Shown: positions 56,009 through 63,591, counted from the stretch's first letter. The stretch is 64,000 nt of DNA from a virus (IMGVR_UViG_2802429733_000002:1-64000); one strand, 5' to 3'. Program-made: numbers and translations. Notes: a model not told the origin generated them from the sequence alone.

Positions 56009-56085
56009 TGGTAGCAGGTGCCCGAGTTGAACGGGCTTGGTTCTGGTTATGAGCCAGACGAGATGACCGCCACCTCCCACCTGCG
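56009..56085 (-). tRNA. tRNA-Met(CAT), initiator-like, phage-encoded
   Basis: TCTGG-CTCATAA-CCAGA anticodon arm; GCCCG-TTCAACT-CGGGC; C1-U72 mismatch; encoded CCA. Confidence 0.8.
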
Positions 56086-56091
56086 ATAAAC

Positions 56092-56166
56092 TGGATCGGG
56101 ATGCTGGCTTCGAACCCGCATCTCCGGAGCCAAAATCCGGCGTGCTGCCTATTGCACCAATCCCGA
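56092..56166 (-). tRNA. tRNA-Gln(TTG), phage-encoded
   Basis: TCGGGAT/ATCCCGA acceptor; CCGGA-TTTTGGC-TCCGG; TTCGAAG T-loop; CCA. Confidence 0.88.
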
Positions 56167-56187
56167 GGGATCAGCGCTGCTGTTGAG

Positions 56188-56266
56188 TGGTCGGGCCGGC
56201 CGGATTCGAACCGGCGGGCTCCTCTGTCCGAGAGAGGCGGGAACGACCTGACTTCCCCACGCCCCG
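56188..56266 (-). tRNA. tRNA-Pro(CGG), phage-encoded, atypical
   Basis: CCTCT-CTCGGAC-AGAGG; GCCGG-TTCGAAT-CCGGC; one G-G in acceptor; CCA. Confidence 0.82.
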
Positions 56267-56755: not shown

Positions 56756-57133
56756 CTCGACCTCCAACTGAGCCCTCATTTATCCGGGCCGAGTATCGCG
56801 ATTTGACCATCCTGGCGAGCCCCGTCAATCCCTACGCGCTGTTCTTGTACAACAACCTGTCTGATTGAATTTGGTATAGGCCGAGAAAAATTCTGCAAAT
56901 GGCCCCCGATGCGGTCGCTAGCCCCCTGATCTCCTAGACTTTTGCCTCCCCCTCCCCCTTTTCTTTTTTGCTTTTGCTTTCGTTTTTCTATTGACGACTC
57001 TGCATTGGCGGACACATATAGCCGTCATGAGGCGCGGCGATGGGGCGGGCGCCTTGGGGAGGATCGGAGGGGAGAGGACGAAGGGAGGCGAGCGCAGCGC
57101 CTTGATGCTCTGAGGAGCTTCACACGGTGCGCT

Positions 57134-57168
57134 TGACCAGCGGACCCCGTGACCGCCGTACGCGGTCG
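57134..57168 (+). promoter_or_regulatory. Putative promoter -35 with overlapping inverted repeat (operator)
   Basis: TTGACC at 57134; GACCGC-CGTAC-GCGGTC at 57152-57168. Confidence 0.35.
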
Positions 57169-57189
57169 GATACGGCCCAACCCGGAGTG

Positions 57190-57291
57190 ATGGCCATGGT
57201 CATGGTCACGTTGCGGGTCACCAAGAAAGGAAAGGACCGCTGGAGTGTTACGCTCCGAGCGGTCCTGACCTGGCTACCTTGGATGACCTAG
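57190..57291 (+). CDS. 33-aa basic/hydrophobic small ORF followed by a strong hairpin
   Basis: GGAG RBS; MAMVMVTLRVTKKGKDRWSVTLRAVLTWLPWMT; hairpin tggtggtcggg-ctgcaa-ccc(c)ggccacca at ~57306-57334. Confidence 0.45.
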   Translation: MAMVMVTLRVTKKGKDRWSVTLRAVLTWLPWMT

Positions 57292-57439
57292 CCGCTTAGC
57301 GCGGCGTGGTGGTCGGGCTGCAACCCCGGCCACCATCACTCCGGAGAATATAGCGGGCCGCACGCATTGCGGCAAGCGGCTCGGGGCGGCGCGCCAACGC
57401 CGATCCCGAGCCTGACCTAGACACGATGGAGCGACCATC

Positions 57440-58036
57440 ATGACCAAGGCTGAGATCACCACTACCACGACGCGTGAGGATGCAGAACGCAAGATGCAGC
57501 GTCAGGCGGACGTGCTCGTCCAACGTGAAGTGCTCGTCTGCATGTCGAGCCTCGTGGCCACGCTTGCGCAGGGCTTCGGCTTCATCAATCCCGATGGCGG
57601 GCCTGTCCGCCGGGAGCTTTCTGCCCTCGCCGAACAGGCAGCGGAACTCGCCTCACCCATCGCTGACTACGAAGAGGCGGCGCGCAACGCCGGATGGAGC
57701 GTCATAGGCGGCGACTTCGAAAACATGTCGCTTGCGAGCACCGTTGACCATCCGGAAGACGCCGTCGCTACGGCCAGCCCGGGCGACGCCTGCGGATGGG
57801 AGGACCTCTGCGAAGAGTTTGGCCTCGATGCCTACGAAAGCGAGGTGTTCGAGCACTGGTCCGTGACCGAATGGCTCGCCGGCAAGCTGGAGGAGCAAGG
57901 CGAGAAAGTCGACCGCGACTTCGCTGGCCTCTGCATTTGGGCTCGCACCACGACCGGGCAGGCGATCGGCATGGACGGGTGCATCCGCGCTATCGTCCAG
58001 GCGACCGACTATGCCTCCGCGGAGGCCGCCGCGTGA
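57440..58036 (+). CDS. Conserved-looking hypothetical phage protein
   Basis: REVLVCMSSLV...EVFEHWSVTEWLAGKLEEQGEKV...WARTTTGQAIGMD; RBS GGAG. Confidence 0.7.
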   Translation: MTKAEITTTTTREDAERKMQRQADVLVQREVLVCMSSLVATLAQGFGFINPDGGPVRRELSALAEQAAELASPIADYEEAARNAGWSVIGGDFENMSLASTVDHPEDAVATASPGDACGWEDLCEEFGLDAYESEVFEHWSVTEWLAGKLEEQGEKVDRDFAGLCIWARTTTGQAIGMDGCIRAIVQATDYASAEAAA

Positions 58037-58164
58037 TGCCCGCCGCTCTCCATGGGCCGGATTGCGCCGGCCCTCGCTTCCCGCTCGGCGACGTGCTCGC
58101 CGCTTTCGTCCTCGTCTACGGTGGAGCCTTCATGATCGGCTTCGCCACGCTCATGGGAGGGTGA
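58036..58164 (+). CDS. Small membrane peptide
   Basis: TGATG coupling; hydrophobic C-terminal half. Confidence 0.4.
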   Translation: MPAALHGPDCAGPRFPLGDVLAAFVLVYGGAFMIGFATLMGG

Positions 58165-58168
58165 GGCT

Positions 58169-58360
58169 ATGGACCACGATGTTTCGAACTGGCGTTGGGC
58201 ACCGTTCCGGATCGCGGGCAAGCGCGTGCGGATCGGGAACGATGCGGATGGCTGGACGCATCTCGCAATCGGCAAGTGGTGCCGGGTCTCGCATCGGTCG
58301 CGCGATGGTGCGATTCGCACTGCTCGGCTGATGCTCGAAGGGGCAACCGCCTCAGCCTGA
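58169..58360 (+). CDS. Small hypothetical protein
   Basis: GAGG RBS, 63 aa, co-oriented. Confidence 0.5.
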   Translation: MDHDVSNWRWAPFRIAGKRVRIGNDADGWTHLAIGKWCRVSHRSRDGAIRTARLMLEGATASA

Positions 58361-58508
58361 CGCGACCCGAGGGCGCCAGCCCGGCGCCTTCCAGCCGCTT
58401 CATGCGGGCCGGCCGATAGCCGGCTGATTCCGACAATCCCGAGACGATGAAGGCCGCGCGTCCCGCGATGGCCAACGGGCGAGCGCGCCCGAACGAAGGA
58501 CCACGACC

Positions 58509-59100
58509 ATGGCCTATGTCGATTCCGTGGAAGCATCTGCGACGGCGCCGCGCGAGCCGGTGGACGCGTTCGGCCCGATCTATCCCGCTCTCAACGCGAC
58601 GGTGGCAAAGGGCCGGCGGGTTGCCGATCCGACACGGGAGCAGCGGCGCGCGCATGGCGAGGCCGTCGGCGCGGCGATTCGCGAACTGCAGCGGCGCGAG
58701 CTGCAGCGTGAGGCGCCTCCGCATCGGTGCCCGTGCGCTAGCGGCACCTGGCATTCGGGCGATGACCTGACGAAGGCGATTCGTCGCCAGCATGACGCGG
58801 CGCTGCAAGCCCAGGCGAAGGCGGACCGGGCACGGCGGACCGATGCACAGGTGATGGCGCAGTATGAGGCGGCCATGGCGGAGCGGCGCGCCCAGGAAGC
58901 GGCGCTCGCGGCGGGCGGGGGTCGTATAGCGGAATCGGAGGCCGCCCGTCCTGTGAAGTCGAGCGCCCGCGGGCGGGATCCCATGGAAGCCGCCGTGATG
59001 AAGGCGGATCCCGCATTGCTGCGGGATGTCCTGCGGCGGGAGCCCGCCGGCCGCCTTCGTGATCTCGCCGCGGCGCGCCTGGTCGAACTCGAGGCGGGGC
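58509..59100 (+). CDS. Hypothetical protein, N-terminal part of a long open frame; true end uncertain
   Basis: AGGA RBS and helical N-terminus; downstream part of the frame is low-complexity and overlaps minus-strand ORFs. Confidence 0.3.
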
Positions 59101-59459
59101 CCGGTCCTGTAGCGGCATCGGATGAGCCCGCGCCGGCCCTACAGGTTGGGCGGGAGAATCGAAATGGCTCTGTAGCGGCGGGCGATGCCTCGGATGCGGC
59201 TCCTCGCGGAACGATTGAGAAAGCGGAGGACGACGGCTCGCTCGTCTCGGCCCCGATGCTCGTCCGCGACCCCGTATGCCCGCCAGCAACGTCCGGAGAG
59301 GCATGCGTGGCCGATATGGGGATTCCCATAACGGGCGAAGCCGCAGCGGCCGCGCTCGACGACGCGGAGTGCCGGGAAGGCCCCGATAGCCCTGTACGGG
59401 CGTCTGAAGGCGTCCGGCGCCTTGGCGAGGCCGGAGGGTCCTGTACGGTCGTGTCAGGA

Positions 59460-59657
59460 TCAGGCGGACCAAACGATCGTCGGTCGGGCCTCGCCGATGC
59501 GATCCGAATGCCGAGCGATCCAGTCGCGCGCGGCCTGGCGCGCCTTGGGCTGGGTTTCGCGAGAGACGTGCAGGTTGGGGATGCTCGGGCAGGTGTAGAC
59601 GTGCTGGTCGCCTTCCTGGGCGTGGACGAGCCGGACCTTTGGCGCTCCGGGCTGCAT
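59460..59657 (-). CDS. Small hypothetical protein
   Basis: Follows 59667..59921 by 10 nt. Confidence 0.35.
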   Translation of the reverse strand: MQPGAPKVRLVHAQEGDQHVYTCPSIPNLHVSRETQPKARQAARDWIARHSDRIGEARPTIVWSA

Positions 59658-59666
59658 ACGGCCGCC

Positions 59667-59921
59667 TCAGGCCTCTCGCTGCCAGCGGGCATGCTCTCCG
59701 CACCATCCGGAGACCCGCAGGATCGCCGTCATCGCCTTCAGCTTCGCGGACTCCCGACTCCATGCGACCTCGAGCAGCCAATCCGCGTCCGGGCTCGTCG
59801 CGACGGTGCGGCCGTCAGGGAGAGGATTGAAGACCAGCCGGATCGTGCCGCGCTGGCGGATGGCGAGCGCCGCCGCTTCCTGCGCGTCGCGGACGATGAC
59901 CGAGGGATCGAGGGCGCTCAT
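59667..59921 (-). CDS. Small hypothetical protein
   Basis: 84 aa, GAGG RBS. Confidence 0.5.
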   Translation of the reverse strand: MSALDPSVIVRDAQEAAALAIRQRGTIRLVFNPLPDGRTVATSPDADWLLEVAWSRESAKLKAMTAILRVSGWCGEHARWQREA

Positions 59922-60010
59922 GGCCTCGCACTCTATCAGGGCTGGCCGCCTTGGATAGACCGTCCTGTAGGGGCGTGGTGTAGTGGTGAGATCGATCGCG
60001 GGAGGGCGCA

Positions 60011-60409
60011 GTGTTCGGAAGACTGAAGCAGCGGTGGGCAGAGGCGAGAGGGGACGTCTTGCTCAAGGAAGTTGACGACGCCATACAGCGCGTGTCCAGG
60101 TTCCCGCCGCCCCTGCGACACTTCGCATCGACTGCTTTCCATGGCGCACTTGGGGATCTCACGAGCGGTAACGGCCCGGTGCGAACCTGGCATCCGGATA
60201 TGAGGAAGCAAGCCGCCACGGAACTCAATCGGGCATCGCGACAGCTCTTTCGCAGCGCCACCGACAACGCTATCGGCGAGGCCTCAGTCGCCAGCTCTTG
60301 CGGCGGGGCGATATTGTCTCGCTACTTCGAAGCTCTAGACCTGCCCGGCACCCAGGCAGCAGACGCGGTTAAGATGATTGAATCCTGGGCCGAGATCGAG
60401 GGTTCGTAG
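60011..60409 (+). CDS. Hypothetical protein
   Basis: GTG start with GGAGG RBS; 132 aa. Confidence 0.5.
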   Translation: MFGRLKQRWAEARGDVLLKEVDDAIQRVSRFPPPLRHFASTAFHGALGDLTSGNGPVRTWHPDMRKQAATELNRASRQLFRSATDNAIGEASVASSCGGAILSRYFEALDLPGTQAADAVKMIESWAEIEGS

Positions 60410-60578
60410 ATCCCCCGGGCGCTGAGCCTCGCTTGGCCTGCACTGCCCGTGACCCACACACGCTGCACACGAGCCGCTTCGTCAGCCGGACGAGCGGCGG
60501 ATCGTCGGGGTGCACCTCCCGCGTCGCCGTATGGCCACACCGAAGGCAGGTGATAATCGTAACGGGGCGGTCTGCCAT
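60369..60578 (-). CDS. Small zinc-ribbon protein
   Basis: CLRC...CSVC. Confidence 0.55.
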   Translation of the reverse strand: MADRPVTIITCLRCGHTATREVHPDDPPLVRLTKRLVCSVCGSRAVQAKRGSAPGGSTNPRSRPRIQSS

Positions 60579-60625
60579 AACCGTCCTATAGTGGTGATTG
60601 AAGGTGAAGGGGTCGTGTAGGGGCG

Positions 60626-61306
60626 CTATCTGCGTCCGGCCTGTTGTGCGGCCGCATCAATCCAGCGGCCGATGTTCGCCGCGCCCGCGTTCCTCCAGTC
60701 GTACTCCATTGCGAAGCTGCTAAGCTCCATGATCTGGCCCCGACCCGGCGCCCGGATGTAGCGCGGCACACTGACAGGATCTCGGTGCCGCGCATATTGA
60801 ACCCAGTTTCCGGCTACGCCTTCTCTCTCGCAGAGATAGAAGCGACCGCCCGCTTCATAAATACCCATATACCAGAGCGGGTTTGGTCCATTTCCGTCGG
60901 GGCTCCTGCGAGCGTGGTGATTGATCCCATTGATGTGAACCACGAGCAGCCCCTTATTGTTTATGACGCTGCGCGCGATCTCATATCGCACCCATGGCCG
61001 CTCCCATGTCATCGATCCTGCCAGTACGCAGACGACCGAGGTGTTCTTCACCCCTTGCCGGATCATTTGGCGAAGGGCCTCCTCGCCTTCCAGCTTCTTC
61101 TTCTCCCACAAGGACGCGTCGTAAAACTCGATCCCCCGGCCTCCGCCGCCTAGTATGGTGCCGCTGAATTCTTGACACATGCGAACATTGTTGACGCGCA
61201 TGATGTCGGCGTAATGGAACGAGAAGAACACCCTTCGGTTCTTTAAGATTCCTAGACCACTCATGCCGCCGTAGATCAGCGGATTGCCGCCGAACGGCCT
61301 ACCCAC
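60626..61306 (-). CDS. TIR domain protein (ThsB/MTH538/DUF1863-like); alternative start ATG 61264
   Basis: RRVFFSFHY, YDASLWE, TSVVCVLAG..T..RPWVRYEI (catalytic Glu), KGLLVVHI. Confidence 0.9.
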   Translation of the reverse strand: MGRPFGGNPLIYGGMSGLGILKNRRVFFSFHYADIMRVNNVRMCQEFSGTILGGGGRGIEFYDASLWEKKKLEGEEALRQMIRQGVKNTSVVCVLAGSMTWERPWVRYEIARSVINNKGLLVVHINGINHHARRSPDGNGPNPLWYMGIYEAGGRFYLCEREGVAGNWVQYARHRDPVSVPRYIRAPGRGQIMELSSFAMEYDWRNAGAANIGRWIDAAAQQAGRR

Positions 61307-61733
61307 AGAACTGCCTCCTCGCCACGATAAAGAACAGCGCCAGCAACAGAGCTATGCAGCCGTAGAAATTCAGAATCGACCAGCTGCAGCAAGTCCGCCA
61401 GAACCCGATAGGCTCGCCCTTCGAAGGGTCGATAGTGAAGTCGGGCACCGCCGACCATGGTTCCGAAGCGGCCGATCGATAGAGGCCGCGGAAACGCTTC
61501 TCCATCCGCAGGTACTGCGCGTCGAGGAGCGCGAACCCCAGGATCGGGAGGAAGCCGACGAGGAGCACCAACGGCGCCTTGAGGGTGAGCGCGGCGCCAA
61601 CGACCGCCGTGAGAACGGTCATGCAGAAGGTCTTCAAGCTGGCGCTATACGACGCCATGCGCGCGATGCTTCCGGTAAGCAGTTCGAGCCGCTTCACGCG
61701 CAGATCGGCGATCTTGTCTTCGGAAATGCCCAT
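61299..61733 (-). CDS. Small multi-TM membrane protein, TIR-associated
   Basis: LELLTGSIARMASYSASLKTF, TM1-TM2, LDAQYLRMEKRFRGLY, C-terminal TM; overlaps the TIR start. Confidence 0.8.
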   Translation of the reverse strand: MGISEDKIADLRVKRLELLTGSIARMASYSASLKTFCMTVLTAVVGAALTLKAPLVLLVGFLPILGFALLDAQYLRMEKRFRGLYRSAASEPWSAVPDFTIDPSKGEPIGFWRTCCSWSILNFYGCIALLLALFFIVARRQFCG

Positions 61734-61804
61734 TGCCCGATGGGACCACCGTCGACCGCCGAACTCAAGAGGCTGTATCGTTGACTCCCACATTCATTTC
61801 ATGA

Positions 61805-61819
61805 GAACAAAATGCGAAC
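61805..61819. promoter_or_regulatory. Alphaproteobacterial LexA (SOS) box
   Basis: GAAC-AAAATGC-GAAC is an exact GAAC-N7-GAAC, 72 bp upstream of the TM-TIR operon; TTGACT at 61781 on plus strand. Confidence 0.75.
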
Positions 61820-61979
61820 TTAAATCGGGAGAGCCCCTAATGCTGGTCCTGGCCACGGATGGCGGCAAGCGCGTACCCAAGACCGTCGCGCTCGATGGAA
61901 TGCCTCGCCCGTCGAGAGATCGTCGCGGGTGCATGGGCGTAGGATCCGAAGGCGACCTATGCTGTGAACTGAGAGGCCT

Positions 61980-63464
61980 TCATAGCGAATCGGGAAACTG
62001 AGTTGACGCGCTGGCGTCGATCGAAGCCAGCAGAGCACTCCTTCTCGCCTGGGTCTCGCGGTAGTCCTGTGCTTCGACATCTCGATGAAAAGTGGCGCTG
62101 GGCGCTAGGCGCTTGAGAGCAGCCTCGACCTCATCGATGCTGGCGCGGAAGAACTCCTTTCGATAGTTCATCGCATTGATGCGCGTCGCATCGAACTCGG
62201 CATGGAGCGCCCTCTCGAGGGTTGGCGCGTCGTCGCTATAGATCATAGCGTGGGTGTCGAAAATGAACGGCACGCTCGCATCCCCGAGTTCTCGCACCCG
62301 GTCTAGCGGATCAAGTCGCCGCGTGAGACCAATCTTCACAACGCCGTCGCCGAATGATCCCACGTTGGAAATCACATAGACCCATCCAGACCGAGTCTTC
62401 TCCGCCATCGCCTGCGCGCGAGCCAGTTTGGAATGCGCGGCGGCAAGGTCTCGTTCCAAGATTGCGATCTGCTCGTTGAACGCCGCAAGGTGAGGGCCAG
62501 CGATGCTGTTCGCTTCCGCCTTGGCCTTGTCGAGAAGGCGCTGGTATCTCGCCTCTTCCTCCTCGGCGGCCTCTAGGTCGCGAAGCAGCTTCTGCTCTTC
62601 ACGTGCTAGGCGGGCCTGCTCTGCGCGTTCCTCACGCTCAGCTCTTTGCTTCTCCCGCATTTCGTGCGTCAAGTATAGCTCACGTAGTTTCAGTTCCGCG
62701 TACTCTCGGCTGATCACCACCTGTTGCGACTCGTTCATTATGTCGATCTTGTTCTTGGCGGCCAGAATTCGGCTCTCCATTGCATTCACGTTGTTCCATC
62801 GCACATTTGCCACTGCAGCGTCGGCCTCGCCGTTGAACGCTCGCAGTGTAAGGCGGATCGTCCGGTTTATGAGTGTTTGGCCCTTCGCCAAGCTGCCGTC
62901 GACATAAATCTTCGCTTTGGAAACGACGGCGGTCTTCTCGTTCGCCATCATTTTCTGATGGGCGCGCGCAACGGACACCTCTTTCTTGTACGCTTCGCTG
63001 TCCTCGAATTCAAAATGCGGCTCGTAGACACCAAGCTCAGCGAACGCGAGTCGCTCGTCATAAATGGCGACCTCGGCAACCAAGCTGTCGAACGTTGTCT
63101 TCTTCTCAGAGTATGCGCTCTTCAGCGATTCGATCTGCTTGAGGCGCGTAATTATCTCTGATCGCAGATTGGCAAGCTCATCCTCAATGGAATAGATCGG
63201 TTCAAGTTTTTCCTCCAATTCGACATTTCTTCGCTCAACCTCTGCAAGTGCCTTCAGCAGATCTGACTTCTGGGTATCCAGATCGGATGCTGAAGTAGCG
63301 CGTTGCTCGTCGAGCTCTCGGCTGTGCAGAGCGGCTTCGAATGCCCTGAGCTGTCGCTCCTCCGCAAGCTTCCGACGGACGTGGATCAGGAACAGCACGA
63401 GCGCCACGCACGCGCAGATCAAAGATGCCGCCCCCGCGATAGCGATTATGACCAGACTCTCCAA
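61980..63464 (-). CDS. TM - coiled coil - DUF4041 - T5orf172/MUG113 GIY-YIG-like nuclease (PD-lambda-1/SNIPE-like)
   Basis: TTG start after GGAGG; N-terminal TM; LRAFNGEAD..V..V.WNN, LKLRELYLTHE; GWVYVISNVGSFG.GVVKIGLTRRLDPLDRVRELGDASVPF.FD.HA...KEFFR. Confidence 0.88.
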   Translation of the reverse strand: MESLVIIAIAGAASLICACVALVLFLIHVRRKLAEERQLRAFEAALHSRELDEQRATSASDLDTQKSDLLKALAEVERRNVELEEKLEPIYSIEDELANLRSEIITRLKQIESLKSAYSEKKTTFDSLVAEVAIYDERLAFAELGVYEPHFEFEDSEAYKKEVSVARAHQKMMANEKTAVVSKAKIYVDGSLAKGQTLINRTIRLTLRAFNGEADAAVANVRWNNVNAMESRILAAKNKIDIMNESQQVVISREYAELKLRELYLTHEMREKQRAEREERAEQARLAREEQKLLRDLEAAEEEEARYQRLLDKAKAEANSIAGPHLAAFNEQIAILERDLAAAHSKLARAQAMAEKTRSGWVYVISNVGSFGDGVVKIGLTRRLDPLDRVRELGDASVPFIFDTHAMIYSDDAPTLERALHAEFDATRINAMNYRKEFFRASIDEVEAALKRLAPSATFHRDVEAQDYRETQARRSALLASIDASASTQFPDSL

Positions 63465-63591
63465 GGCACCCTCCCGCACGTGCACAGTCAGTTCGGTAAA
63501 GCGGAGCTGTCAATCGCAGCCTTGGGTAAATCTGCCGCTATCAGGCGGCCTTCTCCGTTTTCGTGAGTTCGGTGCTGCCGCCGTCGCGCTT

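Follow-up and report, generated by a model that had tools for sequence, protein, structure and literature searches.

The window, a 64,000-nucleotide stretch of viral DNA (IMGVR_UViG_2802429733_000002:1-64000), carries on its minus strand two overlapping genes arranged head to tail, of which the first encodes a small ThsF-like membrane protein and the second a TIR protein of the ThsB type (Table 1). The open reading frame of the thsF-like gene extends to an upstream ATG at 61793 (61299-61793, 164 aa); the 144-aa form, which begins MGISEDKIADLR, uses the start found in the protein database (P0001) and in all homologues. The reading frame of thsB starts, at its GTG, inside the final codons of the thsF-like gene, so that the two genes share 8 nt that include the stop (GTGGGTAG); a perfect AGGAGG precedes the GTG at a distance of 7 nt. 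Given this motif, its spacing, and the overlap of start and stop, the translational coupling claimed in an earlier note on this DNA is plausible. The same note had remarked on a lower GC content, and the values are indeed 0.58 to 0.61 across 60500-62000 versus 0.65 to 0.72 in 57000-60000, with the low-GC segment spanning the pair and its left-hand neighbor. An open reading frame of 69 aa with two CxxC pairs, which give it the look of a Zn ribbon, is located on the minus strand at 60369-60578, 47 nt downstream of thsB; it has no PHROG match, nor was it seen beside the pair at any of the other loci that were inspected.

Table 1. Features of the thsF-thsB locus, in positions of the window
Feature	Position	Strand	Description
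thsF-like gene	61299..61733	-	144 aa, three-helix membrane effector; PADLOC PDC-M50A; phrog_19896
thsB gene	60626..61306	-	226 aa from GTG; TIR, B. cereus ThsB type, C-terminal beta domain
Gene junction	61299..61319	-	AGGAGG 61314-61319, 7-nt spacer, thsB GTG 61304-61306, thsF stop 61299-61301
Candidate LexA box GTTC-N7-GTTC	61805..61819	-	GTTCGCATTTTGTTC on the thsF coding strand, 72 nt upstream of the thsF ATG
PD-Lambda-1	61980..63485	-	TM + coiled coil + DUF4041 + T5orf172/GIY-YIG; PADLOC 1.2e-155; phrog_1847; outside the Thoeris pair

Directly upstream of the pair and on the same strand lies the single-gene defense system PD-Lambda-1, in which Pfam identifies DUF4041 and T5orf172. PD-Lambda-1 and the pair, two defense systems side by side, thus make up a small cluster of morons. 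Three tRNA genes (Met, Gln, Pro) are present at 56009-56266, and past the end of the window follow a Toprim-DnaB primase-helicase, a DUF1376 protein, an MT-A70 methylase, a CI-like HTH-S24 repressor, and a P63C protein; the tRNA and phage genes confirm that the locus is prophage borne, as had been proposed. Between the tRNA cluster and the pair, three plus-strand open reading frames (198, 505, and 132 aa) occupy 57440-60409; Pfam and NCBIfam gave no match for them, and PHROG none of use. The 505-aa frame, which is very GC rich and abundant in Ala and Arg, may not be a real gene.

The 226-aa product of thsB matches Pfam ThsB_TIR (4.7e-20) and the PADLOC models ThsB1 (6e-40) and PDC-M50B (2.5e-40). 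Its residues 24-216 align with B. cereus MSX-D12 ThsB (PDB 6lhy/9b7d; E 2e-29), the C-terminal beta domain included, and in this alignment the catalytic Glu of the WVRYEI motif is kept as E109 (codon 60980-60982). The protein is thus a ThsB-like TIR with its catalytic Glu, which is how it had been read from the sequence at the outset. B. cereus ThsB is a producer of 3'cADPR (Yirmiya et al., bioRxiv 10.64898/2025.12.03.692087). The N-terminal tail of the window ThsB is short and Gly rich (residues 1-22, window 61241-61306, GRPFGGNPLIYGGMSGLGIL). Other ThsBs paired with this ThsF clade (TIR open reading frames of loci L042-L072) possess Gly/Pro/Ser/Leu-rich N-terminal tails of ~20 to 165 aa with repeated short motifs, e.g., NPF, GFGML, SLADLL, and LLGGLAP, and the tailed proteins often begin with MAD right at the effector stop. 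Such tails might anchor ThsB to ThsF or contribute to sensing.

Three hydrophobic segments were identified in the 144-aa membrane protein by a hydropathy scan (residues ~35-51, 56-70, and 117-139). In agreement with these, an AlphaFold2 monomer model built on 91 homologues (pLDDT 96.5, pTM 0.84) contains helices at residues 5-51, 56-90, and 118-143, with a loop between the second and the third, so that the approximately three TM helices counted in the earlier note are upheld by both approaches. Among the 91 homologues, R25 never varies, conservation reaches 90% or more at K34, D71, Y74, L75, E78, and R82, and basic residues predominate at R12 and K/R79. Most of the conserved residues bear a charge, and they map to the cytoplasmic portions of both long helices. 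The soluble motifs quoted in the earlier note as conserved looking turned out to be the conserved core of the family in the same 91 sequences. In the window protein, T replaces the well-conserved Q20 and R the well-conserved H15; the other near-invariant residues are all retained.

The membrane protein matches phrog_19896 (1.3e-20) and PADLOC PDC-M50A (6e-19), and an exhaustive HMMER search yielded a family of 1,912 50%-identity representatives at E <= 0.001; among the family matches listed, no precomputed PF10028 annotation was found. By sequence there is no match in the PDB, and a Foldseek structure search of the PDB gave no significant fold. Direct assignment to a Pfam or NCBIfam family was rejected, as it returned noise only (DUF2244 at 0.04 and BlpZ at 0.038). 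The ESM Atlas offered unnamed clusters only, plus a weak lead to 8xMP (PF24838), a model matched by 2 of the 91 family members.

Of 401 sampled genomes of the same phylum, 8 encode a member of the membrane family, and none of 13 genomes from the same taxonomic family does, a patchy distribution that suggests mobility. Co-occurrence of the two genes had been named in the earlier note as a check on its reading, and the genes prove to be co-conserved. At all seven readable genomic loci, i.e., those of six relatives and the window locus itself, a ThsB_TIR gene is adjacent to that of the membrane protein. Metagenomic loci were recovered with an alignment of five sequences, a single-protein query having found nothing, and in 23 of the 32 a ThsB-type TIR is encoded directly downstream. 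In 6 of the remaining 9, at most ~220 nt follow downstream or the contig ends inside the gene, and in the last three (L056, L069, and L073), where at least 480 nt are available downstream, a TIR was not detected. The partner TIRs of the ThsF family come from different TIR clades, as would be expected for a modular signal-and-effector system. The pairing is also found in a Vibrio temperate element of the Vinavirales, in which a ThsB gene is followed by a ThsF-like gene.

Some loci carry more than one TIR gene. Two or three different TIR genes stand beside one ThsF-like gene or other effectors in L026 (G245:C1), L035 (a Zunongwangia MAG), and L036; of the six readable relatives from the phylum, one has two. 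Multiple TIR genes per locus fit an arrangement in which several sensors feed one effector. Two apparent ThsF-ThsB fusions, in the metagenomic loci L054 and L063, were discarded as probable frameshifts or products of low-quality contigs: L054 has an apparent in-frame stop and a tblastn match beginning upstream of the open frame, and in L063 the frame changes within TM3, which is not the case in the nearly identical L045. The upstream open reading frames of L056 and L069 that resembled TIRs by eye have no Pfam match and were likewise set aside.

Thoeris types V to XI have been defined by Yirmiya et al. (bioRxiv 10.64898/2025.12.03.692087). In that study, type V consists of a TIR protein and ThsF, a three-TM protein annotated as DUF2270. 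Two Bacillus type V systems protected against phages, and both of the tested type V TIRs produced 3'cADPR in an infection-dependent manner. The B. thuringiensis system displayed toxicity triggered by 3'cADPR and was sensitive to the Tad1 sponge, while that of Bacillus sp. 1NLA3E was unresponsive to added 3'cADPR. An AF3 model of ThsF forms a heptameric channel with basic pockets between the protomers (Yirmiya et al.).

Several links connect the window pair to type V. In Table S1 of the same study, the TIRs closest to the window ThsB carry the label "DUF2270 - Type V"; one example, IMG 2693392393, has both FFSFHYADIMRVNNVR and PWVRYEIARSVI in common with the window TIR. The TIR of locus L031 contains two exact strings (46 and 34 aa) of Table S1 entry 2689996971, which is labeled type V, and the gene immediately upstream of it belongs to the membrane family of the window, frameshifted in that assembly. 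The effector labels of Table S1 are noisy, as the authors themselves warn (Yirmiya et al.), and for this reason a further link, through a relative of an experimentally validated ThsB, matters. At a locus of Exiguobacterium chiriqhucha (L034), the TIR is 71% identical to the validated type V ThsB of Bacillus sp. 1NLA3E, and the gene after it encodes a 135-aa protein; our family HMM recovers this protein at 4e-42, and its pairwise identity with the window protein is ~31% (E 1e-15). This locus was retrieved with a 78-aa piece of the 1NLA3E ThsB taken from Table S1, for which the contig search returned relatives rather than Bacillus sp. 1NLA3E itself; the ThsF comparison is accordingly one with the neighbor of a 71%-identical ThsB and not with the validated ThsF sequences.

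A PADLOC comparison, also named as a check in the earlier note, gave a positive result for both genes, with the PDC-M50A and PDC-M50B models of PADLOC-DB each matching its member of the overlapping pair directly. PDC systems are guilt-by-embedding candidates and are described as untested (Payne et al., bioRxiv 10.1101/2024.01.29.577857); a search turned up no text devoted to PDC-M50 itself. Taken with the links to type V, these matches make it very probable, in our view, that the two genes constitute a type V Thoeris (ThsB + ThsF) defense against phages and that they are a moron of a temperate siphovirus-like prophage. The earlier note had read the locus as a signal-producing TIR with a membrane effector that could not be assigned to a named system. 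The first half of this reading is the best supported, by way of the published homologous systems; the second half fails, since both proteins match PDC-M50 models and the pair corresponds to type V Thoeris. The pairing of ThsB with ThsF is already known, and the locus is an ordinary further instance of it that happens to be prophage borne.

Like the published type V systems, the pair is a two-gene operon composed of a TIR gene and a gene for a three-membrane-helix protein of ~135 to 185 aa. The order of the genes differs: here the effector comes first and overlaps the TIR, whereas in the Bacillus and Exiguobacterium type V loci the TIR precedes the effector. The window TIR falls in a B. cereus ThsB-like cluster (2612507145) with the C-terminal beta domain, while the type V systems that have been tested come from other clusters. 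The setting, a high-GC prophage of the alphaproteobacterial type, is a further difference.

The relation of the membrane protein to Pfam DUF2270 (PF10028) is a distant one. The window protein does not match the Pfam model at E <= 0.1 (the gathering threshold of 25 bits is not reached) and was unmatched at E <= 10 in a six-frame search of the genome with DUF2270; the ThsF-like protein of Exiguobacterium has no match at E <= 0.05. For these proteins, the name DUF2270 therefore rests on remote similarity. Two of the 91 members of the membrane family do match PF10028. An hhalign comparison of the family with 13 canonical DUF2270 proteins scored 36.2 (P 5.5e-5, probability 66%), while the reversed and 20 column-shuffled controls scored at most 16.4, and the motifs align by position (IARMAG..NWAIT..EARRYR and IARMA..K.FCIT..DAQYLR.ERRFR). 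Both groups also have an N-terminal helix, a TM hairpin, a basic helix, and a third TM helix, although the canonical DUF2270 proteins are longer (~184 aa) than the 144-aa window protein. From these alignments, a remote relationship between the ThsF family and DUF2270 looks real. The Exiguobacterium and L031 links, in turn, indicate that the DUF2270 label as used by Yirmiya et al. covers the membrane family of the window even though the Pfam model does not reach it.

Canonical DUF2270 proteins (E 1e-56 to 1e-69; L003-L024) were found in 22 genomes of the phylum, where they are conserved within whole genera; for example, one genus has them in 7 of 8 genomes and another in 4 of 4. In this respect canonical DUF2270 looks like a housekeeping gene rather than a mobile defense gene, and its role may differ from that of the ThsF family.

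Among the other Thoeris types, type I (B. cereus MSX-D12, ThsB + SIR2-SLOG ThsA) has a TIR that is homologous to the window ThsB over its full length and has the catalytic Glu in common with it, and the signal is probably the same. The effector of type I is an NADase, whereas that of the window is a membrane protein. No SIR2 or SLOG domain is present in the open reading frames adjoining the pair, and SIR2_2 has no match in the 99%-complete genome. That the pair has no SIR2, SLOG, Macro, or caspase partner, a point made in the earlier note, stands for the adjacent open reading frames. Type II (ThsB + TM-Macro ThsA/ThsC) and type VII (TIR + SLATT) also employ membrane-targeting effectors gated by a TIR product, but the window effector is much smaller than theirs and contains neither a Macro nor a SLATT domain (Pfam scan, E <= 0.1). 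The signals of these types are His-ADPR for type II and canonical cADPR for type VII (Yirmiya et al.). A type II Thoeris is itself present in the same genome, near one end of contig C14 (G000, L002 440-1818, minus strand), where a 166-aa ThsB_TIR protein (1.4e-19) is followed by a 292-aa TM + ThsA_Macro protein (5.5e-49).

By analogy with the characterized systems, ThsB would sense infection and convert NAD+ to a cyclic ADP-ribose signal, most likely 3'cADPR. ThsF is predicted to be an inner-membrane protein in which two long helices running from the cytoplasm into the membrane would carry R12, R25, K34, D71, E78, K/R79, and R82. A ring-shaped ThsF homo-oligomer would bind the signal in basic pockets between its protomers, and signal-bound ThsF may then breach the inner membrane, leading to abortive infection and a stop to phage replication. 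For the window pair itself, the analysis established the anatomy of the genes, the families they belong to, the co-occurrence of effector and TIR, and the prophage setting. Defense activity, 3'cADPR signaling, and an oligomeric channel are features reported for homologues, and from these we infer the identity of the signal and the activity of this particular locus in its host. The identity of the signal is the main uncertainty, because one of the validated type V systems is unresponsive to added 3'cADPR and the tested systems belong to other TIR clusters.

Three alternatives were weighed against this reading. A functional variant of type V, with the same architecture and another signal (2'cADPR, canonical cADPR, a His-ADPR-like compound, or some other molecule), is unlikely. 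It would accommodate the failure of added 3'cADPR to trigger the Bacillus sp. 1NLA3E system, the low identity (~31%) between the window ThsF and the Bacillus-type ThsF-like protein, and the pairing of the ThsF family with several unrelated TIR clades. Yet the closest relative of the window TIR, over its full length, is B. cereus ThsB, described as a 3'cADPR producer, and 3'cADPR was the product of both type V TIRs that have been assayed. We hold it to be very unlikely that the roles are reversed, with the TIR acting as a toxic, NAD+-depleting NADase and the membrane protein as its sensor, anchor, or regulator. A TIR effector is possible in unverified configurations (Yirmiya et al.), and the low-complexity N-terminal tails of many ThsBs of this clade might provide for protein contacts; what argues for a diffusible signal acting on a non-TIR partner is the toxicity of externally added 3'cADPR to cells that carry the validated type V system and the lowering of defense by Tad1. 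Moreover, the TIRs of this ThsB lineage are cyclases that make signals, and the occurrence of a single ThsF beside two or three TIR genes (L026 and L035) fits one effector served by several sensors.

The departures of the window ThsF from consensus at two conserved positions, together with the frameshifted copies seen elsewhere (L031, L063, and L069), are what one might expect of an inactive remnant. Such a remnant, or alternatively a phage membrane gene without a role in defense (e.g., a holin-like gene) that merely sits beside a TIR gene, is nevertheless very unlikely here: neither reading frame is interrupted, the SD is strong and the start of one gene overlaps the stop of the other, the other near-invariant residues are kept, the AlphaFold2 model is very confident, the adjacency to TIR genes is conserved across phyla, and the next gene is the defense gene PD-Lambda-1. 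A type V Thoeris in which ThsB signals to a ThsF membrane effector thus remains our preferred interpretation.

Expression of the type V pair may be linked to the SOS response. The GTTC-N7-GTTC site upstream of thsF (Table 1) conforms to the LexA-box pattern of the alphaproteobacterial type, and the host lexA has GAACATTAGCGGAAC just upstream. There are 116 GTTC-N7-GTTC sites in the 5.17 Mb of the genome, so the chance of finding one in the 186-nt spacer is ~0.4%, a post hoc estimate. Counted within the window alone, GAAC-N7-GAAC is not significantly enriched (3 versus 1.65 expected), and a scan for consensus promoters and terminators returned nothing useful on the minus strand. The candidate LexA box suggests, as a sequence pattern, SOS-controlled expression of the defense pair. 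It is tempting to go further and to picture a variant of type V that combines a LexA-repressed promoter, through which DNA damage or prophage induction would activate the defense, with a Gly/Pro/Leu-rich ThsB tail that tethers the protein to the ThsF ring or senses the phage, and possibly with a signal other than 3'cADPR; we regard this combination as improbable.

The locus adds to the natural examples of type V Thoeris. Pipelines based on Pfam leave ThsF unannotated and may report such loci as an "orphan ThsB", so that PADLOC PDC-M50 or updated DefenseFinder models are needed to recognize them. The possible SOS control and the N-terminal tails of ThsB are small leads rather than discoveries. 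More broadly, ThsF effectors form a much larger family than one would gather from Pfam DUF2270, they are carried by temperate phages beside other defense genes, and type V Thoeris can coexist with type II Thoeris in one genome.
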